Notes: generated by a model from the sequence alone, not told the origin. A stretch of 49,703 nucleotides of DNA from an uncultured virus (IMG/VR IMGVR_UViG_3300027672_001707) (IMGVR_UViG_3300027672_001707); one strand, 5' to 3'; positions 2-40,105 are shown, numbered from the stretch's first letter. Made by a program: numbers and translations.

Positions 2-1099
2 GCAAGTGCAACAACTCCGGAAGAGAAACAGTTTTGGGATAAACGACAGTTAGTTAAAAAGATTAACTTGAACAGTTTATATGGTGCGATTCTTAATCCA
101 GGTTGTAGATTCTTTGATAAACGTATTGGACAAAGTACTACATTGTGTGGCAGAAGTATTGCAAAACACATGGACGCATATGTTAATGAATGTTTAACAG
201 GCGTGTATGATCATAGAGGTGAAACTATTATATATGGTGACACAGACTCTGCATACTTTAGTGCATGGCCCGTTCTTAAAGAACGTGTTGAGAAAGGTGA
301 ATTAGAGTGGAACAAAGATACTTGTACTGCTTTATATGATTCTATTAGCGACAAAGTTAACGAAAGTTTTCCAGGCTTTATGAAGAAGGCTTTTAATGCA
401 CCTAGGGAAAATGGAGAGATTATTGTTGGTGGTAGAGAAGTATGTGCAACCAAAGGTTTGTTTATTACAAAGAAACGTTATGCATTACTTATATACGACA
501 ACGAAGGATATCGCACAGATAAAGACAGTCCGGGAAAGATTAAAGCAATGGGACTTGACCTTAAACGGTCAGATACACCTAAGATTGTACAAGACTTTCT
601 TAGTAACATCTTAACAGGAGTGTTAACTGGCGATGATAGAGATACTGCACTTGAGAAAGTAAAGTTGTTTAAAGAAGAATTCATGCAAAAGCAAGGTTGG
701 GAAAAAGGTAGCCCAAGACGTGCAAATAACATGACAAAATTCCAAGCACTTGAACAGAGGCAAGGAAGAGCAAATATGCCAGGACACGTCAGAGCTAGTA
801 TGAACTGGAATAGATTGCGAAAGATGAACAGTGACAGATATAGTACCGAGATCAAAGACGGTCACAAAGTTATTGTTTGTAAAATGAAGGCAAATCCACT
901 AGGATACACTAGTGTGGCTTATCCAGTTGATGAACCGCATTTGCCACAATGGTTTAAAGAATTACCGTTTGATGATAGTGCAATGGAAAGCACTGTAATT
1001 GACAGTAAGATTAACAACCTATTAGACGTATTGGGGTGGGACTTGACGCTAGATTCCAATACTAACACTAAATTTAATGATTTGTTTAGTTTTGAATAA
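2..1099 (+). CDS. gp43: Family B DNA polymerase, C-terminal part (5' truncated by window edge)
   Basis: Frame is open from base 2 (ASATTPEEKQFWDKRQLVKKINLNSLYG). PolB motifs KxxxNSxYG, YGDTDS and KKRY are present; the protein ends in FNDLFSFE. Confidence 0.95.
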   Translation, partial: ASATTPEEKQFWDKRQLVKKINLNSLYGAILNPGCRFFDKRIGQSTTLCGRSIAKHMDAYVNECLTGVYDHRGETIIYGDTDSAYFSAWPVLKERVEKGELEWNKDTCTALYDSISDKVNESFPGFMKKAFNAPRENGEIIVGGREVCATKGLFITKKRYALLIYDNEGYRTDKDSPGKIKAMGLDLKRSDTPKIVQDFLSNILTGVLTGDDRDTALEKVKLFKEEFMQKQGWEKGSPRRANNMTKFQALEQRQGRANMPGHVRASMNWNRLRKMNSDRYSTEIKDGHKVIVCKMKANPLGYTSVAYPVDEPHLPQWFKELPFDDSAMESTVIDSKINNLLDVLGWDLTLDSNTNTKFNDLFSFE

Positions 1100-1106
1100 A
1101 AAGAAC

Positions 1107-1135
1107 TTGACTTTGAACCTAAATACACATATAAT
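1107..1135 (+). promoter_or_regulatory. sigma70-like promoter with embedded CTAAATA late-type box
   Basis: TTGACT-17nt-TATAAT upstream of the clamp gene; the spacer contains GAACCTAAATA (1115-1125). Confidence 0.65.
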
Positions 1136-1149
1136 TATATTATTAACTG

Positions 1150-1896
1150 ATGGAGAATAAATCTATGAAAGACTATCTAAACGATATTGTTCAGCATACA
1201 CACAGCCTAGGCTTTATTGACTTGGTAAAAATTGAAGGTAGTGATGTTGCAACAACACTAGAAGGACTTGCAGATGACAGAAGTGTTATCGTACAAGCCA
1301 AATTTAAATCGCCGTACGCAGAGTTTATGGGTACGTTCGGTATGCCTAATTTAAGTAAATTAGCAATACTACTTGGTATTCAAGAGTATAAAGCAGATGC
1401 TAAGATTACAATTAGCAAACAAGAACGCAACGGAACAGATGTTCCAGTTGGGTTATACTTTGAAAATGTTAGGGGCGACTTTAAGAACGACTATCGCTTT
1501 ATGACAAGTGAAGTAATTAACGACAAACTTAAAACTGTAAAGTTTAAGGGTGTTAAGTGGGACGTTGAAATTAAGCCAAGTATGGCGGCAGTACAACGTT
1601 TAAAAATGCAGGCACAAGTGCATAGTGAAGAAACAACTTTCATCGCTAGAACAGAAGATGGCAACTTAAAGTTTTACTTTGGTGACCATAGCACACACGC
1701 AGGTAACTTTGTATTCCAACCAGATATTACTGGTTCGTTGAAGCACGGTTGGCAGTGGCCCATTAACCAAGTAATTAGTATTTTGAGCCTCCCAGGTGAA
1801 ATTACTATGCGATTCTCTGATGAGGGTGCTAGTATGATTTCAGTTGATTCTGGACAGATTCAATACGATTATATCCTTCCAGCACAATCTAAATAA
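1150..1896 (+). CDS. gp45: Sliding clamp (gp45/PCNA-like DNA polymerase processivity factor)
   Basis: 248 aa, directly after the polymerase. Clamp-like size and beta-rich pattern, FGMPNLSKL motif and YDYILPA terminus. Confidence 0.7.
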   Translation: MENKSMKDYLNDIVQHTHSLGFIDLVKIEGSDVATTLEGLADDRSVIVQAKFKSPYAEFMGTFGMPNLSKLAILLGIQEYKADAKITISKQERNGTDVPVGLYFENVRGDFKNDYRFMTSEVINDKLKTVKFKGVKWDVEIKPSMAAVQRLKMQAQVHSEETTFIARTEDGNLKFYFGDHSTHAGNFVFQPDITGSLKHGWQWPINQVISILSLPGEITMRFSDEGASMISVDSGQIQYDYILPAQSK

Positions 1897-1907
1897 AGGG
1901 GAAGTCA

Positions 1908-3371
1908 ATGAAGACTAACCTTACAGATGCACAAAATGACTACGCAGTATTTCTGCCAGCATTAAGTACATTCTACGCACTCTTTGTAGGCAGACAACGT
2001 AGGCACGAATATATTGATTATAATCGTGTTCCTAGTTTTCTTCCACACGGTGTTGAAAGTATGAACTGGTTGGCACCAGAAGGTCTATGGAAATACAAAT
2101 GGTCATTGCACTCGGCTGGTCATGCCAGTCTAGACTTGGAAAAGGATATGTATCGTGAAGATATGTACAGAGACAGGAACCGAGAACACAGTTGGTTACT
2201 AGGAGACTCAGGTGGTTTCCAAATTGGTAAAGGCAAGTGGGAAGGTGACTGGAGAGCAAATAGCGGTTGTGCTCAAGCACAAAAGAAACGTGATGGTGTT
2301 CTAAAGTGGATGGACAAGTTCATGGACTATGGAATGATTTTAGATATTCCGGCATGGGTAGGACGTAGTCCTGAAGGTGCAGAAAAAAGTAAAATTAGTT
2401 CATATCAAGAAGCAGTTGAAGGCACACAATTTAATAACGAATACTTTATTAAAAACCGTAATGGTAACTGTAAGTTCTTAAATGTACTACAAGGTGAAAA
2501 CTTTGCACAAGCCGATGATTGGTATCAGCAAATGAAGAAGTACAGTGATCACCGATTGTACCCAGATACACATTTTAACGGTTGGGCAATGGGCGGACAG
2601 AATATGTGCGACTTGCATCTAGCATTGAAACGTGTAATTGAACTAAGGTTTGACGGTTTACTTGAAAAAGGTAAACAAGATGTTATGCACTTCTTAGGAA
2701 CTAGTAAACTTGAATGGGCACTAGTACTAACTGCAATACAACGTGGTATTCGTAAGAACCATAATGAGAACTTCACAGTAACATTTGATTGTGCAAGTCC
2801 GTTCTTATGTACTGCAAATGGTCAAGTCTATACAGGACATAGAACAGTACAAGATGAAAAGTGGAGTTATATGATGTCGCCGGCACCAGATGACAAAGCA
2901 TATAGTACTGACACTAGACCCTACGATGATTTAGCAACAGACTTCTTTAATAAACAAGGAATGAACTGGATGCCTACTCCTATTACACAAGGACTAAAAG
3001 TAAATGACGTTTGTATTTACAGTCCAACAGATGTTAATAGAATGGGTGTATCGACTAAAACTAGTTGGGATTCGTTTGCATATGCACTTATGATGAACCA
3101 TAATGTATATACACACATTAATAGTGTACAAGAAGCAAATAGACAGTATGACGGTGGTAACTATCCTAATATGCTTGTTAACGATACATTCGATAAACAA
3201 GAAGTTAAAGATGTTATTGCTAGAATATTTGAACTTGATAACAAAGACCAAGCACTTGCATTAGTAGATGAACACACTAAACTATGGATGAAGGTCGTTG
3301 GAACACGTGGAGCAGTTGGTAAGAAAACTATTAACAGTTCTGCACAATTTAACAGTTTGTTTGAGGTATAA
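1908..3371 (+). CDS. dpdA: TGT-family transglycosylase, DpdA-like (7-deazaguanine insertion into DNA)
   Basis: TGT motifs LGDSGGFQ, MILDIP, VLQG, MHFLG and TFDCAS; lies beside replication genes, with folE, queD, queE and yhhQ in the window. Confidence 0.8.
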   Translation: MKTNLTDAQNDYAVFLPALSTFYALFVGRQRRHEYIDYNRVPSFLPHGVESMNWLAPEGLWKYKWSLHSAGHASLDLEKDMYREDMYRDRNREHSWLLGDSGGFQIGKGKWEGDWRANSGCAQAQKKRDGVLKWMDKFMDYGMILDIPAWVGRSPEGAEKSKISSYQEAVEGTQFNNEYFIKNRNGNCKFLNVLQGENFAQADDWYQQMKKYSDHRLYPDTHFNGWAMGGQNMCDLHLALKRVIELRFDGLLEKGKQDVMHFLGTSKLEWALVLTAIQRGIRKNHNENFTVTFDCASPFLCTANGQVYTGHRTVQDEKWSYMMSPAPDDKAYSTDTRPYDDLATDFFNKQGMNWMPTPITQGLKVNDVCIYSPTDVNRMGVSTKTSWDSFAYALMMNHNVYTHINSVQEANRQYDGGNYPNMLVNDTFDKQEVKDVIARIFELDNKDQALALVDEHTKLWMKVVGTRGAVGKKTINSSAQFNSLFEV

Positions 3372-4247
3372 ATGAAAAGTCTTATAGTAGGTATGGGTAT
3401 TGGGCAACTATACATGAAGGTACTAACAGAAATGGGTATCGATGTTGTAACAGTTGACCCAAATAGACCTGCTGATTTTAAGACTATTCAAGATGTACCA
3501 ATTGATATGTACGACACTGTACATATCTGTACGCCAAATGAAACCCACGAAGAACTTGCAAGGTTTATCGCTCCCTGGTGTCATTTAATGTTTATTGAAA
3601 AGCCTGGATTATCTACTTCGAAAGCATGGTCAGATTTGCACTATGACTTTCCAGAGTGTAGAATATCTATGGTAAAGAATAATCAGTTTAGACACAACAT
3701 AGATGAACTTATTAATATGGCAAGAACAAGTCGTGTAGTTGACATTCATTGGCAAAACAAAAACAGAGTACCTAATCCGGGTAGTTGGTTTACAACAAAA
3801 GAATTAGCATATGGCGGAGTAAGTAGAGATTTACTTCCACACTTGTTAAGCCTTTATCAAGTATTCAATCCTAGTTATGCTAATACTCTTCCATCAGATA
3901 AAATAGCAAGAACTAATTGGAATCTTAAAGGATTACTTGATACAGATTATGGCACAGTTGATCCCGATGGAGTATATGATGTAGATGATGAAGCAGGTAT
4001 GGGATATAAGACAAAGTTTTGTCAATACAACTTACTCGCTAATTGGAAAACAGACTTATACGATGATGTCGGGATTAACTTTGAAATACTTGGTCATATA
4101 GAACGTGTAGAATTAGGCTTATGTCCTGAAGAAGCATACAAAAGAATGATTGACATTGGACTAGAAAACCTGCATAATAATGAATATTGGGAAGATCAAT
4201 TTACAAAGGATATGTGGATACATAAACAAATGGAAGAACTATGCTAG
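3372..4247 (+). CDS. Gfo/Idh/MocA family NAD(P)-dependent oxidoreductase
   Basis: Rossmann IVGMGIG, ICTPNETH, IEKP and GGVSRDLLPH motifs. Confidence 0.85.
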   Translation: MKSLIVGMGIGQLYMKVLTEMGIDVVTVDPNRPADFKTIQDVPIDMYDTVHICTPNETHEELARFIAPWCHLMFIEKPGLSTSKAWSDLHYDFPECRISMVKNNQFRHNIDELINMARTSRVVDIHWQNKNRVPNPGSWFTTKELAYGGVSRDLLPHLLSLYQVFNPSYANTLPSDKIARTNWNLKGLLDTDYGTVDPDGVYDVDDEAGMGYKTKFCQYNLLANWKTDLYDDVGINFEILGHIERVELGLCPEEAYKRMIDIGLENLHNNEYWEDQFTKDMWIHKQMEELC

Positions 4248-5227
4248 TAAAACTATTACAAACAACAGGCAATGGAAAGTTCGAAGAAATCGAATGGAAC
4301 AAACCTAATGTAGGAAATGAAGAAATTGAAGTTATGGCTTTAATGACTGGCATTTGTCGTAGTGACATTGATATGATGAATGGTAACTTTGGTCCATTGC
4401 CTTTAAATATGCAAGGACATGAAGGACTAGGTCAAGTTACAAAAATTGGTAAAGAGATTACAGACACTAAGGTAGGCGACATTGTTGCTACTAGAGGTGA
4501 ACCTGCATATGCAGATTATTACAACGTTAGACATAACGAATATGTAGTTGTGCCAGATGCTGATCCTAAATACATTATAGAGCCTGTGGCTTGTGGTATT
4601 AATATAGTTACAAGTAACTTAGACAAGTTAAACTATATGTCAGGTATGGCAAAGTTTAAAGGACAACGACAACGTATTTTAATTATAGGCAGTGGCTTTT
4701 TAGCAACAGTTGTTTACACAAAATTAAAAGTATTACGTTTAGCAGATGATGTTGATGTGCTAGGTTCTCATAATAGAAAGTTTTGGGAAGATAGATTAAT
4801 ATCAGAACCTAACGGCAAGTATGATGTAGTGATAGATTTGAAAGATGATAGCACACTTGTATTTGATGGCGATATAATTAATGAGAATGCATTGATTATA
4901 CTAGCGGCAGAGAAAAAAGGAATTACTACTACATTTGGTAACTTGTTATGGAAAAATGCAAGTATGGACTTTCCAAGTCCTAGAAACCCAAACTTTCATA
5001 GTAGTATGGGAGATGCAGTTTCCTTAATTAGTACAGGTATCTTAAACATAGATGGCTTTTGGACAAAAAGTTATGATAGAGATATGGAATGGGAACAAGC
5101 ATTTGTTGACGGCAACAATCGTCCAGAAGGATACAGTAGAGGCTACATTACTTGGAATAAGCATATGTACAAACTGTATGAAAAAACCAGAGCTCAACGT
5201 ATAGTTGACGAAACAGAGAGTAAATAG
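4241..5227 (+). CDS. MDR family (Zn-type alcohol/sugar dehydrogenase-like) oxidoreductase
   Basis: GICRSD, GHEGLG, KVGDIV, EPVAC and IIGSGFLA motifs; lacks the four-Cys structural Zn loop. Confidence 0.85.
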   Translation: MLVKLLQTTGNGKFEEIEWNKPNVGNEEIEVMALMTGICRSDIDMMNGNFGPLPLNMQGHEGLGQVTKIGKEITDTKVGDIVATRGEPAYADYYNVRHNEYVVVPDADPKYIIEPVACGINIVTSNLDKLNYMSGMAKFKGQRQRILIIGSGFLATVVYTKLKVLRLADDVDVLGSHNRKFWEDRLISEPNGKYDVVIDLKDDSTLVFDGDIINENALIILAAEKKGITTTFGNLLWKNASMDFPSPRNPNFHSSMGDAVSLISTGILNIDGFWTKSYDRDMEWEQAFVDGNNRPEGYSRGYITWNKHMYKLYEKTRAQRIVDETESK

Positions 5228-5773
5228 ATGAAACAAATGATGCGAACGTATGCTACACTAAAAGGTGGCGAAGTTACAACTGATAAAGCAAAGTTCTTTA
5301 TGAACAAAGAAGTTGAAAAGACTCCTATGTACGGTGAAAAGACATTGTTTGTATGCGGTATACAAGACTTAAATAGAACTATTGAACACGCAACCAATCA
5401 TGATATTAAACACATCTATTTAGGCACAGGCACAACATTTAAACCAGTAACAAACGGTGACTGGACTGATTGGAATAATTACATCTCAGGATTGCTTAAA
5501 GCAGACTTATGGGTTACATTAGATTTTGATCTAATGGAATATGGTAAAGATATTTTAGAAATGGGTTGGGTTGAAGATAGACGCTTCATTCCTATGCAAA
5601 GTCTAAAACTTGGCTATTGGCAACAATGGAACCATAATACAACTATAAAGTTTGATGACACAGACTTTAATGCCACAAATCCTGGTGTATGGTGTGTTCC
5701 TATGGAAGATGTTATTAATCGTAAAACATTTTCAGATTGGGACAAGTACGTTGGCGACACATTTATTGAATAA
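5228..5773 (+). CDS. Hypothetical protein in the dpdA operon
   Basis: 181 aa ORF abutting the dehydrogenase gene; no recognised motif. Confidence 0.7.
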   Translation: MKQMMRTYATLKGGEVTTDKAKFFMNKEVEKTPMYGEKTLFVCGIQDLNRTIEHATNHDIKHIYLGTGTTFKPVTNGDWTDWNNYISGLLKADLWVTLDFDLMEYGKDILEMGWVEDRRFIPMQSLKLGYWQQWNHNTTIKFDDTDFNATNPGVWCVPMEDVINRKTFSDWDKYVGDTFIE

Positions 5774-6008: not shown

Positions 6009-6470
6009 ATGGGAAGATACATAGACGATATGATTAGCGACATGAGAGCGGCGGCTATACAAGACGCACAAAAAAAGCAAATTGAATCCGCTAGTAAAAT
6101 GATCTGGGTTACATTTAAGAAGGAAGGTATACACAAATACCCTGCCGCATTAGATGATCCTAAACTAGCAACAGGAGATGAATATGATGTTAGTTTTTTA
6201 GGCTATCCTCATAGACATATTTTTCATTTTAAAGTGGCAATAGAAGTATTCCACGACGACAGAGATATTGAATTTATTCAATTCAAACGTTGGCTTGAAA
6301 AATTATATGCAGAAAAAACATTAGAGTTAGATTACAAATCTTGTGAAATGATGTCTGATGATTTATTTGGCATGATACAATCCCGTTACCCTGAACGTAC
6401 TGTAGAAATTGAAGTAAGTGAGGACGGGGAAAACGGATCTTTAGCGAAATATGAGTATACAAGGAATTAA
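6009..6470 (+). CDS. dpdL: QueD-paralog T-fold protein, DpdL-like (putative 7-carboxy-7-deazaguanine decarboxylase)
   Basis: LGYPHRHIF matches LxxxHRHxF, which replaces the QueD CxxxHGH motif. Also EGIH, IEF, SCE and VSEDGENG T-fold motifs. A true queD is encoded separately. Confidence 0.7.
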   Translation: MGRYIDDMISDMRAAAIQDAQKKQIESASKMIWVTFKKEGIHKYPAALDDPKLATGDEYDVSFLGYPHRHIFHFKVAIEVFHDDRDIEFIQFKRWLEKLYAEKTLELDYKSCEMMSDDLFGMIQSRYPERTVEIEVSEDGENGSLAKYEYTRN

Positions 6471-6694: not shown

Positions 6695-7074
6695 TGAGAG
6701 AATTTATCTTTGAATCGTGGAATACTATTATGGATCATAACAAGAATCCATTAAGAGCTATTCCCGATTTACAAGTTAGACATATGGTGATGCAAATACT
6801 CGCATTTATGTGGTCAACTGTATTTGCAATCATTATTGTCAACAACATATGGGTTTTTATGTATAGTGCAATCGGACACGCATTATTTGTAGGAGCAGTA
6901 GTTGTTACCGTTGCCACATTTAGAGTAGCAGAAAAAATTCCAAATGCGTTTAAATTTAAAAATGGATATCATTCTTACGGTAGAGGTAGAGGTTCTATTA
7001 TATTCCGTGATAAGAATGGTATTGCTCAAAAAGTTCCACTAGATCCAAATGATCCTGGTGGAGAACATGAATAG
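6694..7074 (+). CDS. Hypothetical membrane protein
   Basis: Two hydrophobic segments; NPLRAIPD...RHMVMQILAFMWS. Confidence 0.7.
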   Translation: MREFIFESWNTIMDHNKNPLRAIPDLQVRHMVMQILAFMWSTVFAIIIVNNIWVFMYSAIGHALFVGAVVVTVATFRVAEKIPNAFKFKNGYHSYGRGRGSIIFRDKNGIAQKVPLDPNDPGGEHE

Positions 7075-7081
7075 GATAAAA

Positions 7082-8176
7082 ATGAAAACAGTATATATAG
7101 TAGACTTAGAGCCAGTCGAAACACGTTACACGGCTCAGTGGAAGAAACATTTACCTAAACAAATGTCTGAGTACTTTGGTACAGAGGATTATAACGTAGA
7201 AGTTATTAGTGGTGGAGATGTTCCACAGACTACTACACCTGGTGCATTTTTAAACTTTGCAGGAACTAACAGTTACAAAAGTCAACAGATGTTGCAAATT
7301 GCTGAACTAGTTGCAAGTGGTAAAGTTAAAGACGGCGATTACTTCTTGTACACTGATGCATGGAACCCTACAGTAATACAGTTAAAGTATATGGCAGAAC
7401 TACTAGGTATCAATATTAAAATTGGTGGTATGTGGCACGCCGGTAGTTATGATCCAGCAGACTTCTTAGGAAGATTGATTGGTGCTAAACCTTGGGTACG
7501 TTACGCAGAAGCAAGTATGTTCGAATGTTATGACCATAATTACTTTGCTACACGATTCCATGTAGACTTGTTTGCACAAAGTTTCTTAACTGATACAAAG
7601 GATATTGATCAGAATTTAGAAGTAGGTAAGATGCAGATTGTTGGTTGGCCCATGGAGTATCTAACAGATACACTGCAACCGTTTGCTGGTGCTAAAAAAG
7701 AAAACATTATATTGTTTCCGCACAGAGTAGCACCTGAGAAGAATCCAGAGATCTTTGCTAAACTAAAAGAACTATTACCAGACTATGAATTTATTGTATG
7801 TCAGGATAAGCAGTTAAGCAAAGACGAATACCACGAACTACTCGGTAAAGCAAAGATTGTGTTTAGTGCTAACTTGCAAGAAACATTAGGTATCAGTGCT
7901 TACGAAGGTAGTTTAGTTGATACATTACCATTAGTACCTAATAGATTAAGTTACTTTGAAATGTATCCAGATGAATTCAAATATGCAAGTGCTTTAACAG
8001 TTAATTTAAAAGGTTTTGAAAAGAGTCCTACTGAAGTCGTAGACAAGATTATTGATATGATTGAGAACTATGACAAGTATGTTGAAACAAACAACTTACT
8101 AAAAGAACGACTTAAAGACTTCTTTGATGGTACCAAATTGTATCAGGCTATCAAGGCTAGTGTCGATGGAATTTAA
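7082..8176 (+). CDS. GT-B (GT4-like) glycosyltransferase, QTMAN/GTDC1/DUF3524-like C-terminal motifs
   Basis: FPHRVAPEKNPE, SANLQETLGISAYEG (ExxG-x4-E) and PNRLSYFEMY; likely start ATG 7082. Confidence 0.8.
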   Translation: MKTVYIVDLEPVETRYTAQWKKHLPKQMSEYFGTEDYNVEVISGGDVPQTTTPGAFLNFAGTNSYKSQQMLQIAELVASGKVKDGDYFLYTDAWNPTVIQLKYMAELLGINIKIGGMWHAGSYDPADFLGRLIGAKPWVRYAEASMFECYDHNYFATRFHVDLFAQSFLTDTKDIDQNLEVGKMQIVGWPMEYLTDTLQPFAGAKKENIILFPHRVAPEKNPEIFAKLKELLPDYEFIVCQDKQLSKDEYHELLGKAKIVFSANLQETLGISAYEGSLVDTLPLVPNRLSYFEMYPDEFKYASALTVNLKGFEKSPTEVVDKIIDMIENYDKYVETNNLLKERLKDFFDGTKLYQAIKASVDGI

Positions 8177-8790: not shown

Positions 8791-9477
8791 ATGAGTATAA
8801 GTGAAGAAATTAAAAAAAGAATCCAGGCTGATAAAGGACGTTATTGGGCTGGAGATAACATTAGCAAGTATCTTGAAGATGGTGATACTGAGAAACTAAT
8901 CGAAGAACTTACACCTAAGTTCAGTAGTGTACTAGATAGTTTGCTTATTGATAGAGAAAATGATCCTAACAGTAACGACACTGGTAGACGTCTTGCTAAA
9001 ATGTATATTAACGAATTGATGAGTGGACGCTATTTTCCAAAGCCTAATGCAACTGCATTTCCACAAGAGATGGCAGATGCATACACAGGTATTTTGGTGG
9101 TTCGTAGTGAACTTAAAAGTGTCTGTTCTCATCACCACCAACCAGTAACTGGTGTCGCATACATAGGAATACTTGCGGCAGAGAAATTGATTGGGTTGAG
9201 CAAATACACTCGTATAGCTCAGTGGTGTGCAAGACGTGGCACACTGCAAGAAGAACTTTGTAATAATATCGCTAGAGAAATTATGAATGCAACTGGAAGT
9301 GAAGACGTGGGTGTTTACATTCAAGCAACACATGGTTGTTGTGAGAATCGTGGCATTATGGCACACAGTAGTTTAACACAAACTACAGTACTTAAAGGTG
9401 CATTTACAAATGACGCTGGTACAAAGCAAGAGTTCTTCGATAACATTAAACTACAACAGGAGTTTGCTCCTAGATAG
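8791..9477 (+). CDS. folE: GTP cyclohydrolase I
   Basis: SVCSHHHQP, IGLSKYTRI, LQEEL and HGCCENRG Zn and substrate motifs. Confidence 0.95.
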   Translation: MSISEEIKKRIQADKGRYWAGDNISKYLEDGDTEKLIEELTPKFSSVLDSLLIDRENDPNSNDTGRRLAKMYINELMSGRYFPKPNATAFPQEMADAYTGILVVRSELKSVCSHHHQPVTGVAYIGILAAEKLIGLSKYTRIAQWCARRGTLQEELCNNIAREIMNATGSEDVGVYIQATHGCCENRGIMAHSSLTQTTVLKGAFTNDAGTKQEFFDNIKLQQEFAPR

Positions 9478-11024: not shown

Positions 11025-11633
11025 ATGTTTAACTTTAAGAACGTAGACAAAACTATGTTGATGAAACTTGTAGCACTACACGTTATTGTGATTACAGTAT
11101 CAAATGCATTGGTCGGTATTCCAGTAGAGATATTTGGAGTAAAATTAACATGGGCGGCATTCACGTTCCCATTAGTAGTAATTGCAACAGACTTAACTGT
11201 TAGGTTACTAGGCAAAAGCATTGCAAGGCAAACTATTGCGGCGGCATATCCGTTAGCAATTATTGGATCTATAGCAGTTGTACTAGCCGAAGGTGCACCA
11301 GGATCTGTTGCATTAAGAATTGGCTTTGCAAGTGCTACTGCATACGCAGTAGGTACATTACTTGATGTATATGTATTCCAATACATCAGAGAAGGATTTA
11401 AGAACAATTGGTGGTTGGCACCTGCGGTATCAACTGTGGCGGCAAACATCATCGATACTTACACATTCTTTGCAGTTGCATTTAACAACGGTGCTGATGA
11501 ATATATGGCGGCAAATTGGATTGAGATTGCAGGTTCACAAGTTGTAATTAAAATTGCAGTAGGCTTAATCATATTCTTACCAGCATATGGTCTGTTACTC
11601 AAGCATCTACAAAAGAAATACAAGTTAAAATAA
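11025..11633 (+). CDS. yhhQ: Queuosine precursor (preQ0/preQ1) transporter, YhhQ/COG1738
   Basis: SNALV, TWAAFTFP...TDLTVRLLG, RIGFASATAY...LDVYVF, WWLAP and DTYTFFAVAF match the YhhQ pattern. Confidence 0.9.
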   Translation: MFNFKNVDKTMLMKLVALHVIVITVSNALVGIPVEIFGVKLTWAAFTFPLVVIATDLTVRLLGKSIARQTIAAAYPLAIIGSIAVVLAEGAPGSVALRIGFASATAYAVGTLLDVYVFQYIREGFKNNWWLAPAVSTVAANIIDTYTFFAVAFNNGADEYMAANWIEIAGSQVVIKIAVGLIIFLPAYGLLLKHLQKKYKLK

Positions 11634-12554: not shown

Positions 12555-12649
12555 TGTTAAACGATTTAATATCGTTTATATGGAAGAGTGCAATAGCACT
12601 TTTCCTAGTTTGGTTTATATTTTTCTTAATTGGTTTAGGAGTAAGTTAA
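12554..12649 (+). CDS. 31-aa hydrophobic peptide (not in ORF track)
   Basis: MLNDLISFIWKSAIALFLVWFIFFLIGLGVS; TAATG-coupled at both ends. Confidence 0.55.
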   Translation: MLNDLISFIWKSAIALFLVWFIFFLIGLGVS

Positions 12650-15579
12650 TGAATAAAAAGACAGCAGTGTTAGGAATGGTTAGTATGTTGGCTCTTACCG
12701 CTTGTGGCGGTGGTGGAGGTGGAAGTATTAGTATCACTGCACCAACTCCAACTAATATTGGAACTGTTTCTTTTAATTCATTAATTTCCAATAGTATAGG
12801 AAATCTTGCAGTAATACAAACTGTTACCGAAGATGGTAAAGTAACTGCCCAGGAGGCAGTAGAAGTATTTGAATGGATGAACAATAATAGTATTGATGAA
12901 TCCGTATTAAAAAATTATACAGTTGAAATCGATGGTGTTGCAACTCCACTTGACCAAGCATGGAATAAACTTAAAGGTTACAAGAAAGTTTATTATGATG
13001 GTAAAGAAACCTTTTGGAAAGGTGTTGCTGATAGCGGAACATTTGATGATGAAACTGGTGCATATTTAGATGTAAAAGCCTTTGCACAAAATGAAGATAA
13101 GATTGACTTTGAAAAGGTTGGTACAGGTGAGATTGAAGTTGAAGATGTTAAAGATATTATTGCCCCTGTCGTAGAAGAACCAGTAGTTGAAGAGCCTATT
13201 GTAGAAGAGCCTATTGTAGAAGAGCCTATTGTAGAAGAGCCTATTGTAGAGGAACCAGTAGTTGAAGTAACTGAAGTTTCTAGAGAACAAGTTGCAAAAG
13301 AATTACAAAGCCAAGTAGTAGAGTCAACAGTAGCAGGTGATGTTAGTAAATCATTTAATGCTACAGTAGATTGCACTAATCAAATATTACAAGATGGCAC
13401 AACTCATACAGGAACTTGCGACAAGTATAGAGTTCAAACAAACATGAACGAAAACCTAATTAAGACGTGGAATGTAACATACAACATAACGTATAGTGAC
13501 AATAGTGTTAAGGCTATTACAGTTGTTGAAACTTCTACGCACATTGTTCCAGCAAGTCCTGTTATAACTTACGAGTACATTAAGAATGGTGATGCTCCTG
13601 TAGAAGAAGAAGTTGTTGAAGAAGAAGTTGTTGAAGAAGAAAACAACACATCAGTTTCATATGCAAATGTTGTATATACACATAGCGACTTGGGTACAGT
13701 AACTCCTGGTGCTATTAAAGATAATAACTTATATAGAACAGACGAGTTCTTTGGACTTGCAGACTTTGTTAACGATAACGTGCTGTCTACTATTAATGCA
13801 GATGCGGCATGGAGCAGAGGTTGGACAGGTAAAGGAAGTATTGTAGTTATTGCAGACAGTGGTGCTAACGTAAACCACACAGACTTAGATGGTAACATTG
13901 GACTTACTAAAAACTTCTTAGACAATAGTACAGATGTTTCGGACAGTAACGGACACGGTACACACGTTGCAGGTATTACAGGTGCAGAACTTGATGGTAA
14001 CGGAATAATTGGTGTAGCACCAGATGTTACTATGATGATTGCAAAAGTAACAGACAATACTGCATATAGTTTTTACAGGGCCAAAAAAGCCGCACAGTGG
14101 GGCAAGGATAACGGAGCAATAGCAATTAATGTTAGTGCCGAAGTTAGATTAGATAACGGATTTAAAAGAAGTCTTACATTAGATGGTAACGGACAATGGC
14201 ATAGTACACATTGGTATTATGGTGTAAATGGTTACAATGGTGCAAAAGACGAAGCAACAGGTTGGAAAACTGCATTAGGTGATGACATGGTATTAGTTAA
14301 AGCCGCAGGTAACCAAGGGTATGAATATAGTCCAGGTATGAACCAAATGGCTACTGCAACTGATAGCAATGGTAACTTAATACTAGATGGGCAAATGCTT
14401 GTAGTAGGTAGTTGGGATATTGCTAACAATCAGATATCAGGATTTAGTAACAAAGCAGGCACGGTATGTACAACTTATGTTAATGATGCTTGTACAGATG
14501 CCGCAAGTATAAGTGATTACTATATACTTGCACCGGGTACGAGTGTGTACAGTACAGATAATAATGGTACAGGGTATGTACATATGTCAGGTACTAGTAT
14601 GGCGGCTCCGGTAGTAACAGGTGCAGTTGCTATTGTTAATCAAATGTGGCCTCACATGAAAGGCAAGAACCTTGTAAGACTTCTTACAGAAACTGCTGAT
14701 AAAACTATTGCAAACTATAATGTAAACACACACGGACAAGGATTGTTAGATTTAGATAAAGCAACACAACCAGTTGGAGTAACAGGTATTCCTACCACTG
14801 GTAGAACAAATGGTAGTGTAAGTTCACTGTCAGGATATGTTTCAGGTAGCAGTGGTGCTATGTCAGAACTTGCTAGTGTAATGGTATTAGATAGTTATGA
14901 AAGAGATTTTTATGTAGACATGAGTACTTCATATAAAGTAGATACAAGAGCAAATAAATTTACACACACATTGGCGGCAACAAATATGTATGCAGGGTAT
15001 AGTAATTATGACCAACACTTGGCATTACCGCACATTGCATTAAATGATAATCCAGATCATCAGTGGACAATACAACCTGGATTCTTTAACGAAGCAAATT
15101 CGTTTTTAGGAAACAGTCAATCAGGTGTGTTTGGTAATTTAGATAATGCATACACAACTTATGCCAACTTCAATTACAATGCATCTTATAATGATGTTAA
15201 GGTATTTGGACAGTTTGGTTTAGGTTACACTAAAAATTCTTACAGTAATGAATGGAGTATGTTAAGTAAAGCAGGCGATATTTACAGTAGTACATGGAGT
15301 GCTGGTGTTGAAAAGAATGGTTGGGGTGCAAGTGTAAGTCAGCCAGTTACTATTGAAACTGCTAGTATGACGTATAATGTACCTACTAGTAGAGATATGG
15401 ATGGTAACGTAAACAATACAGAAACTAAAGTTAATATGAAAACAGACGAAAGAAACCTTGACTTTACTGCATATTACAAGTATAATATAGATACAGTAGA
15501 CTTCAAAGCATATGTTGAACAAAGAACAGGTGGATTTGCTGACACAAACTTAGGAGTACAAATTGCATACAAGTTTTAA
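12649..15579 (+). CDS. Lipoprotein S8 subtilisin-like protease with probable C-terminal outer-membrane beta-barrel (autotransporter-like)
   Basis: Lipobox LTAC followed by GGGGGG; catalytic triad IADSG / HGTHVAG / GTSMAAP plus AAGN; amphipathic beta C-terminus ending in YKF; AGGAG RBS before ATG 12649. Confidence 0.85.
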   Translation: MNKKTAVLGMVSMLALTACGGGGGGSISITAPTPTNIGTVSFNSLISNSIGNLAVIQTVTEDGKVTAQEAVEVFEWMNNNSIDESVLKNYTVEIDGVATPLDQAWNKLKGYKKVYYDGKETFWKGVADSGTFDDETGAYLDVKAFAQNEDKIDFEKVGTGEIEVEDVKDIIAPVVEEPVVEEPIVEEPIVEEPIVEEPIVEEPVVEVTEVSREQVAKELQSQVVESTVAGDVSKSFNATVDCTNQILQDGTTHTGTCDKYRVQTNMNENLIKTWNVTYNITYSDNSVKAITVVETSTHIVPASPVITYEYIKNGDAPVEEEVVEEEVVEEENNTSVSYANVVYTHSDLGTVTPGAIKDNNLYRTDEFFGLADFVNDNVLSTINADAAWSRGWTGKGSIVVIADSGANVNHTDLDGNIGLTKNFLDNSTDVSDSNGHGTHVAGITGAELDGNGIIGVAPDVTMMIAKVTDNTAYSFYRAKKAAQWGKDNGAIAINVSAEVRLDNGFKRSLTLDGNGQWHSTHWYYGVNGYNGAKDEATGWKTALGDDMVLVKAAGNQGYEYSPGMNQMATATDSNGNLILDGQMLVVGSWDIANNQISGFSNKAGTVCTTYVNDACTDAASISDYYILAPGTSVYSTDNNGTGYVHMSGTSMAAPVVTGAVAIVNQMWPHMKGKNLVRLLTETADKTIANYNVNTHGQGLLDLDKATQPVGVTGIPTTGRTNGSVSSLSGYVSGSSGAMSELASVMVLDSYERDFYVDMSTSYKVDTRANKFTHTLAATNMYAGYSNYDQHLALPHIALNDNPDHQWTIQPGFFNEANSFLGNSQSGVFGNLDNAYTTYANFNYNASYNDVKVFGQFGLGYTKNSYSNEWSMLSKAGDIYSSTWSAGVEKNGWGASVSQPVTIETASMTYNVPTSRDMDGNVNNTETKVNMKTDERNLDFTAYYKYNIDTVDFKAYVEQRTGGFADTNLGVQIAYKF
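13174..13263 (+). repeat. 15-bp coding tandem repeat (EEP[IV]V x6)
   Basis: Four identical GAAGAGCCTATTGTA units flanked by two GARGAACCAGTAGTT units. Confidence 0.95.
13600..13641 (+). repeat. Short coding repeat (VEEEV x3)
   Basis: GAAGAAGAAGTTGTT repeated. Confidence 0.85.
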
Positions 15580-18775: not shown

Positions 18776-19225
18776 ATGGGACAATATTTTAGCACAAAGC
18801 ATTACGGACATAACATTGGATTGTCGGCAGTATTTAGACAACCTAACGCAGACCATAGCCATTGTCATTTACTACATGGTTACAGTTTAGCATTTACATT
18901 TACTTTTGGCTGTAGCGAACTTGATAAAAAGAACTGGGCAGTAGACTTTGGGGGACTTAAACCTTTGAAGAAATGGTTAGAAGATAACTTTGATCACAAG
19001 ACAGCAATCGACAAAGACGATCCACACATGGACAAGTTTATGGAACTACAAGAACTTGACTTGGCAGAGATTGTAGTAATGGACGGTGTTGGTGCAGAGA
19101 AGTTTGCCGAACACGCCTTTAACTTTGCAGATAAACTTATCCGTGAAGCAACAAACAATAGATGTTATTGTGTAAAAGTTGAATGTGCCGAGCATGGTGC
19201 CAATAGTGCAATTTACAAAGGTTAA
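18776..19225 (+). CDS. queD: 6-carboxy-5,6,7,8-tetrahydropterin synthase
   Basis: CHLLHGY, VDFGGLK, FDHK, GAEKFA and E...NSA motifs. Confidence 0.9.
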   Translation: MGQYFSTKHYGHNIGLSAVFRQPNADHSHCHLLHGYSLAFTFTFGCSELDKKNWAVDFGGLKPLKKWLEDNFDHKTAIDKDDPHMDKFMELQELDLAEIVVMDGVGAEKFAEHAFNFADKLIREATNNRCYCVKVECAEHGANSAIYKG

Positions 19226-19230
19226 AAACA

Positions 19231-20136
19231 ATGGCAGTAACACAAGAAAAGAAGTATTACTATTCGGAGATATTTCATAGTATACAAGGCGAAGGGAATT
19301 ACACAGGTGTTCCTACTGCTTGGATACGTTTCTTCATGTGTAACTTACAGTGTAATGGATTTGGACAAATAGATCCTACAAAACCTGACACTTACGAATT
19401 ACCGTTTGAAGACTTTGATGTTGATAGTGTATCACGTGTAGAAGATTTACCTGTTTGGGATAAAGGTTGTGACAGTAGTTACACCTGGGCAAAGAAGTTT
19501 AAAAAACTAATGGGAGAAGAAACTCCCACAGTGTTAGCACAAAAGATTATTAACGTTATGAAAAATGAGAGCAATCCGGAAGGGTTGTTCCTACATCCTG
19601 TTACACAACAAAGACAGCACTTATGTATTACAGGTGGCGAACCTTTGATGGTTACTGGACAACGGGCGACAATTGGTATATATGAAGAACTTGAAAGACA
19701 AGGTAACTTGCCTGCTAGTATGACATTTGAAACAAATGGTACGCAAAAATTACTACCCGAGTTTGTTGAATGGGTAAACAGAATTGATATAGAAATATTC
19801 TTTTCTTGTAGTCCTAAACTATTTACAGTATCAGGTGAGAAACCTGAGAAGGCTATTAAGCCAGAAATAGTTAAGCAGTATAGAGAACTTTCTAGTAAAG
19901 GACAACTTAAATTTGTAGTTGGACACAAAGAAAGAGAGTGGGAAGAAATGGAACAAGCAATAGCAAAGTTTAAAGACGCTGGTGTTGATTGGCCCATTTG
20001 GGTTATGCCCACAGGTGCAAGGGAAGAAGAACAAACAACTACTGCAGGTGCAGTGGCTGAAAAGGCATTTAAACGTGGCTACAATGTAGCGGCAAGAGTA
20101 CACGTTTACTTGTTTGGAAATGCAATAGGAACATAA
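19231..20136 (+). CDS. queE: 7-carboxy-7-deazaguanine synthase (radical SAM)
   Basis: EIFHSIQGEG, CNLQC...GCDS, ITGGEPL, ETNGT, SPKL, LKFVV and RVH motifs. Confidence 0.92.
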   Translation: MAVTQEKKYYYSEIFHSIQGEGNYTGVPTAWIRFFMCNLQCNGFGQIDPTKPDTYELPFEDFDVDSVSRVEDLPVWDKGCDSSYTWAKKFKKLMGEETPTVLAQKIINVMKNESNPEGLFLHPVTQQRQHLCITGGEPLMVTGQRATIGIYEELERQGNLPASMTFETNGTQKLLPEFVEWVNRIDIEIFFSCSPKLFTVSGEKPEKAIKPEIVKQYRELSSKGQLKFVVGHKEREWEEMEQAIAKFKDAGVDWPIWVMPTGAREEEQTTTAGAVAEKAFKRGYNVAARVHVYLFGNAIGT

Positions 20137-31502: not shown

Positions 31503-32171
31503 ATGACAGCCGAAGTTAAGATGATAAGTTACAGTAATCCTGTAAAAGAGTACACAGAATTAGACAGTGTACAAGACCTCATTGCCTTTTGTGCCAGGGT
31601 AAGTAATCCTGCAGGACAAATGAATAAAGAAACAAATGAGAAACTTATCAAGTATTTGATTAAACATAAGCATTGGTCACCATTAGAAATGGTTAGTGCT
31701 TGTTTAGAAATCAAAACAACTAGGGATATTGCACATCAAATTGTAAGGCACCGTAGTTTTTCATTCCAAGAATTTAGTCAACGTTATGCTGATCCTAAAG
31801 CACAAGGAGATATCTTTGAGTACAGTGAAGCACGTTTACAAGACACAAAGAATAGACAAAACAGTATTGCTACTGATGACAGAGATTTACAACATTGGTG
31901 GGACTCACAACAAAAGCACGTTGCAGAAGTTTCAAAGGTTGCATATGAGAATGCTATTGAAAAAGGCATTGCTAAAGAACAAGCTCGTAAGGTATTACCC
32001 GAAGGACTTACAAAGACAACATTATATATGAACGGTAGTTTACGTTCGTGGGTTCACTACATTGAATTGCGTAGTGCTAACGGAACACAAAAGGAACACA
32101 TGGAAGTCGCTATCGCTTGTGCGAAAGTTATTGCTAACATATTTCCTTTGATAAATGAAATAAATACTTAA
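31503..32171 (+). CDS. thyX: FAD-dependent thymidylate synthase
   Basis: ARVS, HWSPLE, RHRSFSFQEFSQRY, EQAR.VLP and TQKEH. Confidence 0.95.
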   Translation: MTAEVKMISYSNPVKEYTELDSVQDLIAFCARVSNPAGQMNKETNEKLIKYLIKHKHWSPLEMVSACLEIKTTRDIAHQIVRHRSFSFQEFSQRYADPKAQGDIFEYSEARLQDTKNRQNSIATDDRDLQHWWDSQQKHVAEVSKVAYENAIEKGIAKEQARKVLPEGLTKTTLYMNGSLRSWVHYIELRSANGTQKEHMEVAIACAKVIANIFPLINEINT

Positions 32172-33551: not shown

Positions 33552-33968
33552 ATGGCATATTCAGATAAGGTGATGGACCATTACGAAAACCCTCGTAATG
33601 TAGGTAGGTTCGATGACACAGACGGAAGCATTGGAACAGGAATGGTGGGAGCACCTGCTTGTGGTGATGTAATGCGTTTGCAAATTAAAGTTGATAAGAA
33701 TGGCATCATAGAAGATGCTAAATTTAAAACATATGGATGCGGTAGTGCTATTGCCAGCAGTAGTTTATTAACTACAATGGTAAAAGGAATGTCGTTAGGA
33801 CAAGCAGGTAAGATTACAAATACTGAACTTGCTACCGAACTTGCATTGCCTCCAGTAAAGATTCACTGTAGTGTGTTGGCAGAAGATGCCATCAAAGCCG
33901 CAGTGTTGGATTATCAAGGAAAGAATCCTGAGCAAGAAAAAACAGGCAATTATTATGAGATCAAGTAA
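33552..33968 (+). CDS. iscU: Fe-S cluster scaffold
   Basis: YSDKVMDHYENPRNVG, APACGD, GCGSAIAS and LPPVKIHC. Confidence 0.97.
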   Translation: MAYSDKVMDHYENPRNVGRFDDTDGSIGTGMVGAPACGDVMRLQIKVDKNGIIEDAKFKTYGCGSAIASSSLLTTMVKGMSLGQAGKITNTELATELALPPVKIHCSVLAEDAIKAAVLDYQGKNPEQEKTGNYYEIK

Positions 33969-38514: not shown

Positions 38515-38659
38515 GTTTTTTACTCTGTTGATTGATCGGGCGTTTACTTGATGGATTTGTTCCGTAAGTTTTAGTTAACTTACTAAACGATTCGTCGTCC
38601 ATTCCCGCGAATATTCCTTTCGGATCTCTTTGTTTTCGTTTGTCGTCGTTGTTACTCAT
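38480..38659 (-). CDS. 59-aa basic/hydrophilic peptide (not in ORF track)
   Basis: MSNNDDKRKQRDPKGIFAGMDDESFSKLTKTYG...; ATGA overlap with the upstream radical SAM stop. Confidence 0.45.
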   Translation of the reverse strand: MSNNDDKRKQRDPKGIFAGMDDESFSKLTKTYGTNPSSKRPINQQSKKHDRQNKRRNNS

Positions 38660-39762
38660 TCTTTCCTTTTTGGAATCTTACTGTCTGCACTAGATACACA
38701 CGAGTTTGAAATACAAGGCATCGGTTTATTAAATAACTTAAACCCTGTTTCGATATTTCCTAGTGGACTGTCACTGCAACTATAACTTCTCTTAATTGAG
38801 CCGTCTGGTTCTCTTATTATAATTCCTTGGAACCCTGCATTGCATTGCCAACCAGTAAATTTATTAAAATTAAACGCATTAAAGCGTTCTGCTTGATCCA
38901 TGTACCATTTCTTGCCTTTATTATCTTCAAACTCTACTTGAAAATGCTGAGGTACTGTTCCATTGTCCAATTTCATTTCTGGTAAAGGCTTCCAATTGGG
39001 CTTTGGTCTACTAACGTATTTATTTTTAATCTCAGTATATGCACGTTGTGGCATATCATTATACAGTTTTTGCTTCATTTCCTCTGTATAACCATCAACG
39101 ACTCTACTTGCAGTTGGATCACTCATAGGCTTTAAAGTTACGTTAATGTTCTGATTATGAAAGAACAATGCATTCTCATAATACTTGTCAAATACTTCTG
39201 GAACCATAACCATATTAATAGTTACTTGTACATCATGTTCTTGACATAGTATAAGTTTGTTTGCAAGGTCCTGCATTTTCTCAGGTGTGTCGACGTGTTC
39301 AACGTGTAGACTACAAGTAATACTAGCACGGTGAAACTTACTTGCGTAATCGACATACGTTTCAAACCACTTCATGTTACGACTACAATTACTAGTCATG
39401 TGTACACTTGTGTAGTTTGTATTGTGAGCATCGTCACTTAAATGTTTTAAAATATCTAAGTAACCAGGATGAAAAGTTGGCTCGCCTCCACTTAAACTAA
39501 AATGAAAACTATTAAAGCCATTGTCTCTTGCCTGTCTCTTAATTTCGTCAATAGTTGATAGACATAGTTCCGTAGGTCTATGGTCTTTTCTATCACTACG
39601 AGCATAGGGCCAACAATAAGAACATTTGTAGTTACAAAATCTTCCTAGTAGCCAACTAACTGTAAAAATATCTCTATGAAGTAAAGTACGTTGCCCAACA
39701 CTAACTAAATCGTCAAAGGGTATAGCACTAAAGTCATATTCACTTGTTTTTAAATCAGTCAT
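38656..39762 (-). CDS. Radical SAM protein with C-terminal SPASM/twitch-like domain
   Basis: CNYKCSYC, SGGEPT; C-terminal CNAG...DGSIKRSYSC...LGNI...CISNSC. Confidence 0.9.
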   Translation of the reverse strand: MTDLKTSEYDFSAIPFDDLVSVGQRTLLHRDIFTVSWLLGRFCNYKCSYCWPYARSDRKDHRPTELCLSTIDEIKRQARDNGFNSFHFSLSGGEPTFHPGYLDILKHLSDDAHNTNYTSVHMTSNCSRNMKWFETYVDYASKFHRASITCSLHVEHVDTPEKMQDLANKLILCQEHDVQVTINMVMVPEVFDKYYENALFFHNQNINVTLKPMSDPTASRVVDGYTEEMKQKLYNDMPQRAYTEIKNKYVSRPKPNWKPLPEMKLDNGTVPQHFQVEFEDNKGKKWYMDQAERFNAFNFNKFTGWQCNAGFQGIIIREPDGSIKRSYSCSDSPLGNIETGFKLFNKPMPCISNSCVSSADSKIPKRKE

Positions 39763-40105
39763 CTAATCTACTTTTTATTAAGTTTTTAATCATTACTCTG
39801 TCGTTTGCTGTAGAGAAGCCGCCTTCCTTACTTGTTTGTAAGAACGGTTTGCCACACATTTGTTTACAACTATCCATTGGAGCATCTGTAAAACTTTGTT
39901 CTATCATGTAACTTGCTTCACTACGATTAATTTCATCCATTGTGCCGTTTGAGATATGCAGTTGTTCTATTTTATCTCCAAGTAAATTTTTTAAGTCGAA
40001 CCACGGAGACTCGCCGCCGAAGTGACAACAAGGTCCAACATATCCATCTACTCTTAGGATAGGTGGCTGGTCATCTCTGTATTTACATTTAGGGTAAATA
40101 GGCAT
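39755..40105 (-). CDS. Stand-alone SPASM/twitch-like Fe-S domain
   Basis: PKC...VDGYVGPCCH...CKQMC; own AAGGAG RBS. Confidence 0.75.
   Translation of the reverse strand: MPIYPKCKYRDDQPPILRVDGYVGPCCHFGGESPWFDLKNLLGDKIEQLHISNGTMDEINRSEASYMIEQSFTDAPMDSCKQMCGKPFLQTSKEGGFSTANDRVMIKNLIKSRLDD

Follow-up and report, generated by a model that had tools for sequence, protein, structure and literature searches.

Why would a phage enzyme that is predicted to exchange bases in DNA carry the same kind of C-terminal peptide as the DNA polymerase of that phage? The question is raised by a stretch of 49,703 nt from an uncultured giant phage (IMG/VR IMGVR_UViG_3300027672_001707), the whole of which is referred to here as the window, and in which the genes of a family B DNA polymerase and of a DpdA-like, predicted DNA guanine transglycosylase stand on either side of a putative sliding clamp gene. 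We propose, with a probability of about 0.7 and largely on the strength of structural modelling, that the DpdA-like enzyme is tethered to the phage sliding clamp through its FNSLF tail. The tethering of a base-exchange enzyme to the clamp had been put forward in an earlier reading of this DNA (the original prediction), and it is upheld here, as a prediction, by the conservation of the tail, the fold of the clamp and a model of the complex.

A common C-terminal motif on both sides of a clamp gene

The window begins inside the gene of a T4/RB69-type family B DNA polymerase (2..1099, plus strand), the 5' end of which is cut by the window start, leaving the C-terminal 365 amino acids (aa). The full protein of 885 aa is encoded in G002, a 306,714-bp IMG/VR record (87% complete by CheckV) in which the polymerase, the clamp and the DpdA-like protein all occur at 100% identity. 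The assignment of the polymerase is clear at the level of sequence models (Pfam PF00136, E 5.6e-17; phrog_1918, E 4.6e-76), and its nearest solved relatives are RB69 gp43 chains (E 1e-25). Its open-ended reading frame finishes in NTNTKFNDLFSFE before the stop codon (1097..1099), and the last eight residues, FNDLFSFE (1073..1096, with F-N-D-L-F at 1073..1087), form a putative clamp-binding peptide. This tail resembles the T4 gp43 tail EKASLDFLFG, which is described as a gp45 binder in the available portion of PMC6212786. The DpdA-like protein of 487 aa (1908..3371, plus strand, stop 3369..3371) ends in SSAQFNSLFEV. Its FNSLF motif comprises residues 481-485 (3348..3362), and the tail FNSLF-EV, at 3348..3368, closes a disordered C-terminal segment of 22 residues (466-487; 3303..3368; predicted local distance difference test, pLDDT, below 50). 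The segment has a GTRGxxGKKxxN lead-in, and 15 relatives share G465, R467, G468, G471, K472 and N476 without exception. The original prediction had read both ends correctly, as TKFNDLFSFE and AQFNSLFEV, although its ranges were slightly displaced: 1073-1099 holds FNDLFSFE and the stop, with T and K at 1067..1072, and 3345-3371 starts one residue late, the A being at 3342..3344.

That the two genes flank a clamp gene is confirmed, since the open reading frame (ORF) 1150..1896 (plus strand, 248 aa; relatives begin at Met 1165) sits between them and its product adopts a PCNA/gp45 fold according to AlphaFold2 (AF2) and Foldseek. The AF2 model, built from an alignment of 15 relatives, has a pLDDT of 90.7 and a predicted TM-score (pTM) of 0.88. 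Its top Foldseek matches are PCNA and related clamps (E 3.1e-11, TM 0.60-0.70), and three copies folded together with the enzyme tail give a clamp pLDDT of 90. The two-domain DNA-clamp fold is present, whereas no curated sequence model recognises the protein: it has no Pfam or NCBIfam match, its PHROG match (phrog_12062) is of unknown function, and its profile retrieves from the PDB sequences a single irrelevant row (E 0.42). By its modelled fold, and by that only, the 1150..1896 product is a sliding clamp, one too diverged for sequence models.

The likeness of the two tails exceeds what the composition of the proteome would provide by chance. Estimates were made on a crude set of 391 ORFs (97,117 residues) from G002, in which F[ND].LF has three occurrences, two of them at the polymerase and DpdA-like termini, against 0.048 expected in four terminal registers. 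The looser form F..[LMF]F is found in the last 8 residues of 4 of the 391 ORFs, with 0.48 expected. Besides the two proteins in question, it ends a 2-oxoglutarate (2OG)-oxygenase-like ORF of 187 aa (SFNIFFNK) and an unknown ORF of 298 aa. The 187-aa ORF was considered as a clamp client and set aside, its end being judged a chance match. The 298-aa ORF (G002:C1:128921-129817; L053:8924-9817, minus strand), which has no Pfam or PHROG match, ends in ..DNIFGGMFKLA and could, from this sequence, be a third clamp client.

The tail, whose absence from homologues would have counted against the original prediction, is conserved over a wide range of divergence. A close set was composed of 115 IMG/VR loci with DpdA-like relatives 51-100% identical, and both tails are complete in 96 of them. 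There, [FY]xx[LMF]F is present near the C-terminus of every polymerase (96/96), and the motif occupies the aligned site in 91/96 DpdA-like proteins, the exceptions being L031, L117, L118, L129 and L142. In the first of these, the residues at the aligned site now read YNKHI, a decayed form, and the protein runs on for 38 residues to a new C-terminus that has an FNNLF of its own. A divergent set of 79 loci was gathered by query alignment of the DpdA-like family, with 76 DpdA-like tails and 67 polymerases complete. The loose motif is found in the last 45 aa of 57/76 of these DpdA-like tails, compared with 19 of 772 background windows of the same size taken from the cores of the same proteins, a 30-fold enrichment; it is present in 64/67 of the polymerases, and 72/79 loci have a clamp homologue within 10 kb.

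The family as a whole is large: 7,728 of the 8,000 candidates scored (90%-identity clusters) match it at E ≤ 1e-5, and 926 representatives of 50%-identity clusters match at E ≤ 0.001. Among 108 full-length representatives of 50%-identity clusters, [LMF]F stands within 6 residues of the terminus in 31, compared with 12 of the 391 phage proteome ORFs. The share of cluster representatives with the motif, internal forms included, falls with distance from the window protein (20, 17 and 5 of 36 in successive thirds). The motif persists to relatives about 30% identical, in a disordered segment whose flanks are variable.

The corresponding ends are also known from named phages. In PA5oct the polymerase terminates in ..HFDSLFGW and the DpdA-like protein has ..SFNSLFDV followed by 30 acidic residues; in Vibrio phage 2.275.O the two proteins terminate in ..NNTDLFDW and ..NNNDLFGW, and in Phosso in ..TFNDLFTF and ..VEGLF, respectively. 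The two tails also appear to change together between lineages. Motif position 4 (polymerase/DpdA) reads L/L in 81 of the 96 loci, M/M in 2, F/F in 5, L/F in 5 and L/H in 3, and wherever the polymerase has a residue other than L the enzyme carries that same residue (7/7 loci). Both proteins share xxFFEF in one divergent clade (L183: polymerase ..SEVMDNFFEF, DpdA ..EEVMDTFFEF), DDLF/DIF in another, MF in L030, L046 and L221, and NNxDLFxW in Vibrio phage 2.275.O. As a separate observation, the C-terminal strand of the clamp in the MF/FF-tail lineages L030, L046 and L153 reads ..YIIPMVTK, ..YIIPMLTK and ..YYIMALSK, compared with the common ..YILPAQSK. These sequences, from very few lineages, hint at a three-way co-variation between the two tails and the modelled contact site of the clamp.

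Proposed docking in the clamp pocket and competing explanations

Modelling of the clamp trimer with the DpdA tail, which the original prediction had suggested, places the tail in a pocket of the type that accommodates PCNA-interacting protein (PIP) boxes. Three copies of the clamp were folded with residues 440-487 of the enzyme, each given as an alignment of 15 rows, with the rows of the two in matching order. The three runs scored 0.34, 0.64 and 0.62 (median 0.62), and the best of three controls reached 0.02. The pass mark is one reached by 116/157 solved complexes and by 2/215 mismatched pairs, counts that apply only roughly to the present case, a multi-copy job with custom alignments. At least 36% of the contacts are shared between the runs, and the partner pLDDT is at least 42. 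Tail residues 472-481 and 484-487 are predicted to contact clamp residues 43-45, 47, 128, 130-135, 160-163, 204, 225-227 and 242-247, and the contacts of lowest error are those of L484 and F485 with clamp 225-227, 242-244, 130-135 and 47. On the clamp, the contacts fall in the interdomain connector, in the C-terminal strand (which has the invariant P244) and in one strand of the N-terminal domain, a site that we take to be the pocket used by PIP boxes on PCNA.

We propose the following sequence of events. FolE, QueD, QueE and DpdL would make a 7-deazaguanine base, probably 7-deazaguanine itself or 7-carboxy-7-deazaguanine (CDG), and the DpdA3-type enzyme would insert this phage-made base into the phage DNA. 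In the enzyme, the catalytic TIM-barrel core would be followed by the 22-residue disordered tail ending in FNSLF-EV, a peptide of the same kind as the FNDLF-SFE of the polymerase, and both tails would dock in the hydrophobic pocket formed by the interdomain connector and the C-terminal strand of the clamp. The enzyme could then be held on DNA by clamps that stay behind on the new duplex, or by an unoccupied subunit of the trimer to which the polymerase is bound, and base exchange would be coupled to replication and processive. We infer that binding is real, that the enzyme acts in time just behind the fork and that modification density gains from this arrangement.

Several points weigh against such a tether. 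The pass of the complex model may reflect PCNA-PIP and gp45-peptide structures that the predictor has retained; because such complexes are already solved, it speaks for likeness and not for binding by this copy. One of the runs reached only 0.34, and the fold of the partner is uncertain (pLDDT 42-50). Formal tests of co-variation are also unconvincing. Permuted polymerase tails attain the observed similarity in 134 of 20,000 permutations with 25 cluster representatives, in 1101/20,000 with 16 clusters and in 2298/20,000 with 7; the finer the clustering, the less independent its clusters, and the permutations over coarse clusters (7 and 5) are underpowered. On the tree, position 4 of the polymerase motif changes 4 times, which leaves 3 independent pairs (sign test p ≥ 0.25); the enzyme follows the polymerase in 2 or 3 of the 3 and never goes in the opposite direction. 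Since one consensus is common to most lineages, a lineage's own polymerase tail ranks first as a match in only 1-2 clusters. The co-variation that the original prediction had proposed to look for is accordingly visible qualitatively, in the 7/7 loci and the shared lineage variants, although it is weak under formal tests, and the case therefore rests on conservation and not on co-variation.

The distribution of the tail is likewise incomplete. No loose motif is present in 19/76 of the divergent DpdA-like tails. About 13 of these 19 belong to one lineage, ending in ..ITGMDADNxVSMDxxDx, and most of its loci possess an adjacent clamp and a motif-bearing polymerase (loci of the lineage are L164, L176, L178, L181, L182, L185, L186, L188, L192, L195, L207, L213, L218, L219 and L224, in which the neighbouring polymerase ends in FxxLF or FxxMF). 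Because this lineage lacks the motif and sits beside clamps, the tether would be dispensable for some members of the family. In L159, which is close to the tail-less group, the 12-kb locus shows neither clamp nor polymerase. A search of IMG/VR for distant relatives devoid of the tail returned no match for queries P0136 and P0193, and for P0129 one locus, of the main clade. In Phosso the DpdA-like protein retains the terminal GLF only, and its gene is far from the clamp gene. The 5'-3' exonuclease of the window, which would be expected to be a clamp client, lacks a tail of this kind. From the literature, DpdA3 activity has never been reconstituted and DpdA3 did not work in E. coli (Hutinet 2023, PMC10516641, available portion); and for the T4 alpha-glucosyltransferase (alpha-GT), a clamp-associated enzyme discussed below, a 2026 study found that expression and activity, not clamp contact, mainly set the alpha/beta glucosylation ratio (PMC13216743, available portion).

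Some of these points would fit a likeness of the tails without a shared function, the DpdA-like tail serving self-regulation, oligomerisation or turnover, or being a relic. The consensus is short and hydrophobic, the signal in the co-variation tests is weak, the motif is missing from one lineage, and the 2OG-oxygenase-like ORF shows that an SFNIFFNK end can occur too, probably by chance. We consider this explanation unlikely, since the motif is kept down to about 30% identity within a disordered segment with variable flanks, FNNLF was regained at the new terminus of L031, lineage variants are common to the enzyme and the polymerase, and the enrichment over background is 30-fold.

It could also be that the shared tail binds another component of the replisome, such as the clamp loader, the single-strand binding protein or the helicase, which would make the enzyme replisome-coupled and not clamp-tethered. 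The clamp was the sole partner offered in the complex model. In addition, among 184 complete DpdA-like tails, 83 are like that of the window protein, with the motif no more than 5 residues from the C-terminus, and 80 have the motif followed by at least 15 mostly acidic residues. In 55 of these 80 the acidic extension ends in a second conserved element, KL[DE]xLE-like, which may point to a partner other than the clamp; the PA5oct protein (L001:5995-7617), for instance, ends in ..EKLTELEQGLDN. In T4, further contacts within the replisome are made by acidic tails. Loci with the acidic extension include L036-L042 and L084-L152. Against a different partner for the motif itself stand its resemblance to the LDFLF peptides of T4 gp43 and ligase, which are gp45 binders by isothermal titration calorimetry (ITC) and crystallography (PMC6212786, available portion), the modelled docking of the tail in the canonical pocket of the clamp, where controls scored close to 0, and the position of the clamp gene between or beside the two genes in 72/79 divergent loci. 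We hold such an alternative to be quite improbable, and clamp tethering through the FNSLF tail continues to be the preferred explanation.

The enzyme, its substrate and the genes around it

The proposed coupling presupposes that the DpdA-like protein acts on DNA. Its AF2 model (62 relatives; pLDDT 93.4, pTM 0.92) matches tRNA-guanine transglycosylases (TGTs) with a Foldseek E of 4.4e-7 and a VIA Z of 19.3 (root-mean-square deviation 4.2, 301 residues aligned), and about 50 TGT entries match it at VIA Z 17.8-19.3. D100, S101 and G103 of GDSGGFQ, and D294 of FDCASP, are invariant in the 62 relatives. Sub-threshold alignments bring residues 97-219 onto TGT 101-235, and residues 293-325 onto positions 253-287 of the Pfam TGT model. 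We take GDSGGFQ and FDCASP to be the TGT catalytic motifs and equate their aspartates with TGT Asp102 and Asp280. At the level of sequence models, there is no match at threshold among the Pfam, PHROG, NCBIfam and PADLOC models. The Pfam TGT model (PF01702) gives 11 bits against a cut-off of 26.3, matches 4/62 relatives (best E 0.042) and finds nothing in G002 at E ≤ 1; the family profile searched against the PDB sequences reaches TGT at E 1.6-1.8 only, amid unrelated rows.

The connection with DNA comes from phage PA5oct, whose protein QCG76197.1 is matched by the 487-aa protein in tblastn (E 7e-70, 34% identity, 85% of the query). In Supplementary DS1 of Hutinet 2023 (PMC10516641, available portion), QCG76197.1 is filed as DpdA3 and QCG76199.1 as DpdL. 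Neither the 487-aa family profile nor the Pfam TGT model finds anything in the genome of CP220 (FN667788), which together with phiST is a founding DpdA3 member, so that the DpdA3 membership of the window protein rests on one link. From this homology and from the modelled fold, the protein is predicted to be a DpdA3-type DNA guanine transglycosylase. The DNA of PA5oct resists five restriction enzymes with G in their sites, pointing to modified G, and the earlier claim of a DNA and not a tRNA substrate is supported by this context and by the filing of the PA5oct homologue as DpdA3. It is very improbable that the enzyme is instead a TGT acting on tRNA, or has some other non-DNA role, with a clamp contact irrelevant to its substrate: the nearest solved folds are indeed all tRNA TGTs, no DpdA sequence model recognises the protein and the founding DpdA3 of CP220 escapes the family profile, but the PA5oct homologue is accompanied by FolE, QueD, QueE and DpdL in a phage whose DNA behaves as G-modified, the gene belongs to a polymerase-clamp block in most of the 96 + 79 loci, and a polymerase-like tail makes little sense on a tRNA enzyme.

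A homologue of the window protein is also found in Vibrio phage 2.275.O, where AUS03049 (L002:5908-7698) is annotated as hypothetical. A 2019 survey of 7-deazaguanine phages listed this phage with FolE, QueD, QueE, QueC and YhhQ, and no DpdA; judging from its sequence, AUS03049 is probably the missing transglycosylase. The finding would supply a DpdA where that survey had left a blank.

Genes for 7-deazaguanine synthesis also lie in the window, all on the plus strand. A DpdL homologue, predicted to be a 7-carboxy-7-deazaguanine decarboxylase (6009..6470; phrog_17812), is 56% identical to PA5oct QCG76199.1 (E 1.6e-41). It is followed by GTP cyclohydrolase I (FolE; 8791..9477; Pfam PF01227, E 2.6e-37), which is also present in G002, and by a Vut_1/YhhQ-type transporter of the queuosine-precursor transporter family (11025..11633; Pfam PF02592, E 2.3e-25), 40% identical to YhhQ of Vibrio phage 2.275.O. 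Further on are a member of the QueD/6-pyruvoyl-tetrahydropterin synthase family (18776..19225; Pfam PF01242, E 1.4e-14) and a QueE-like radical S-adenosylmethionine (SAM) enzyme (19231..20136; phrog_2076, E 2.3e-54; 36% identity to PA5oct QueE). QueC is located elsewhere in G002.

Between the DpdA-like and DpdL genes, 3372..5773 encodes a weak GFO/IDH/MocA-like oxidoreductase, a zinc alcohol dehydrogenase-like protein and an unknown protein of 181 aa. These three ORFs have no counterpart in the PA5oct locus, and further modification of the base or of a sugar is a possible role for them. A glycosyltransferase-like ORF at 7049..8176 (weak Pfam GT1), which bears no clamp-type tail, is 45% identical to PA5oct EST35_0317; the latter directly follows the PA5oct DpdA3 gene. 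The ORF is a conserved companion. At least six radical-SAM ORFs follow one another on the minus strand (38659..49631), and 13 radical-SAM matches occur in G002, an uncommon number for a phage. The window also codes for a 999-aa subtilase-domain protein (12580..15579), ThyX (31503..32171) and a NifU-like iron-sulfur scaffold (33552..33968), the last of which fits with the many radical-SAM genes.

Relation to known clamp clients and DpdA systems

The precedent invoked by the original prediction was the docking of C-terminal peptides on gp45, of which the gp33 and gp55 tails are also clients. For gp43 it is documented in the available portion of PMC6212786, where the T4 gp43 tail EKASLDFLFG and the T4 ligase loop EPEGLDFLFD bind gp45 by ITC and crystallography. 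The two window tails have in common with these T4/RB69 clients a short, hydrophobic and flexible peptide with an xxLF core. They differ in having FNxLF (other lineages have FFEF, MF or DLFxW) where the T4 peptides have LDFLF, and in that the predicted client is a base-exchange DNA modification enzyme and not a replication or transcription factor.

With DpdA3 as described by Hutinet 2023 (PMC10516641), the window shares homology to PA5oct QCG76197.1 and the FolE, QueD, QueE and DpdL set. According to the available portion of that study, DpdA3 replaces guanine completely in CP220, phiST and immuto 2-6A, while the other DpdA subfamilies modify 0.1-30% of guanines; the modification is called post-replicative, no mechanism is offered there for the complete replacement, and the word 'clamp' is absent from the main text. 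It can be surmised, as a tentative extension that we regard as possible though doubtful, that docking on the clamp enables this complete replacement and that the failure in E. coli is explained by the lack of the phage clamp. The tail would then track the clamp code of each lineage (FNxLF, FFEF, MF, DLFxW) as a general clamp-client module for phage DNA hypermodification, to which half of the family would add an acidic KL[DE]xLE element recruiting a further partner. If the tether is true, it would provide a simple and testable reason for complete guanine replacement, a route to the reconstitution of DpdA3 in which the phage clamp and its loader are supplied, and, in the clamp pocket, a point of interference for host defences or competing clients. 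PA5oct is a cultured and tractable relative for a large DpdA-like family.

The closest functional precedent is the T4 alpha-GT, which associates with gp45 (Sommer 2004, cited in, and confirmed by pull-down in, PMC13216743, available portion) and has been suggested to act on DNA as it is replicated (PMC13216743, available portion). As is predicted for the window, a phage DNA-modifying enzyme is there tied to the phage clamp. The two systems differ in chemistry, glucosylation of 5-hydroxymethylcytosine as opposed to base exchange at G, and in fold, and no polymerase-like peptide is reported for alpha-GT in the available portion of that source. This precedent, absent from the original prediction, lowers the novelty of the concept but not that of its application to DpdA. 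The statement that no clamp-coupled DpdA had been described holds for the literature searched, subscription journals lying outside the search, and a polymerase-type clamp peptide on a DpdA enzyme is new here. Beyond phages, DNMT1 and UNG2 are tethered to PCNA via PIP boxes and work on freshly synthesised DNA. By the same logic, a short peptide there holds on a clamp an enzyme that modifies or excises bases, whereas the consensus (Qxx[LIM]xx[FY][FY] for the PIP box), the enzymes and the domain of life differ.

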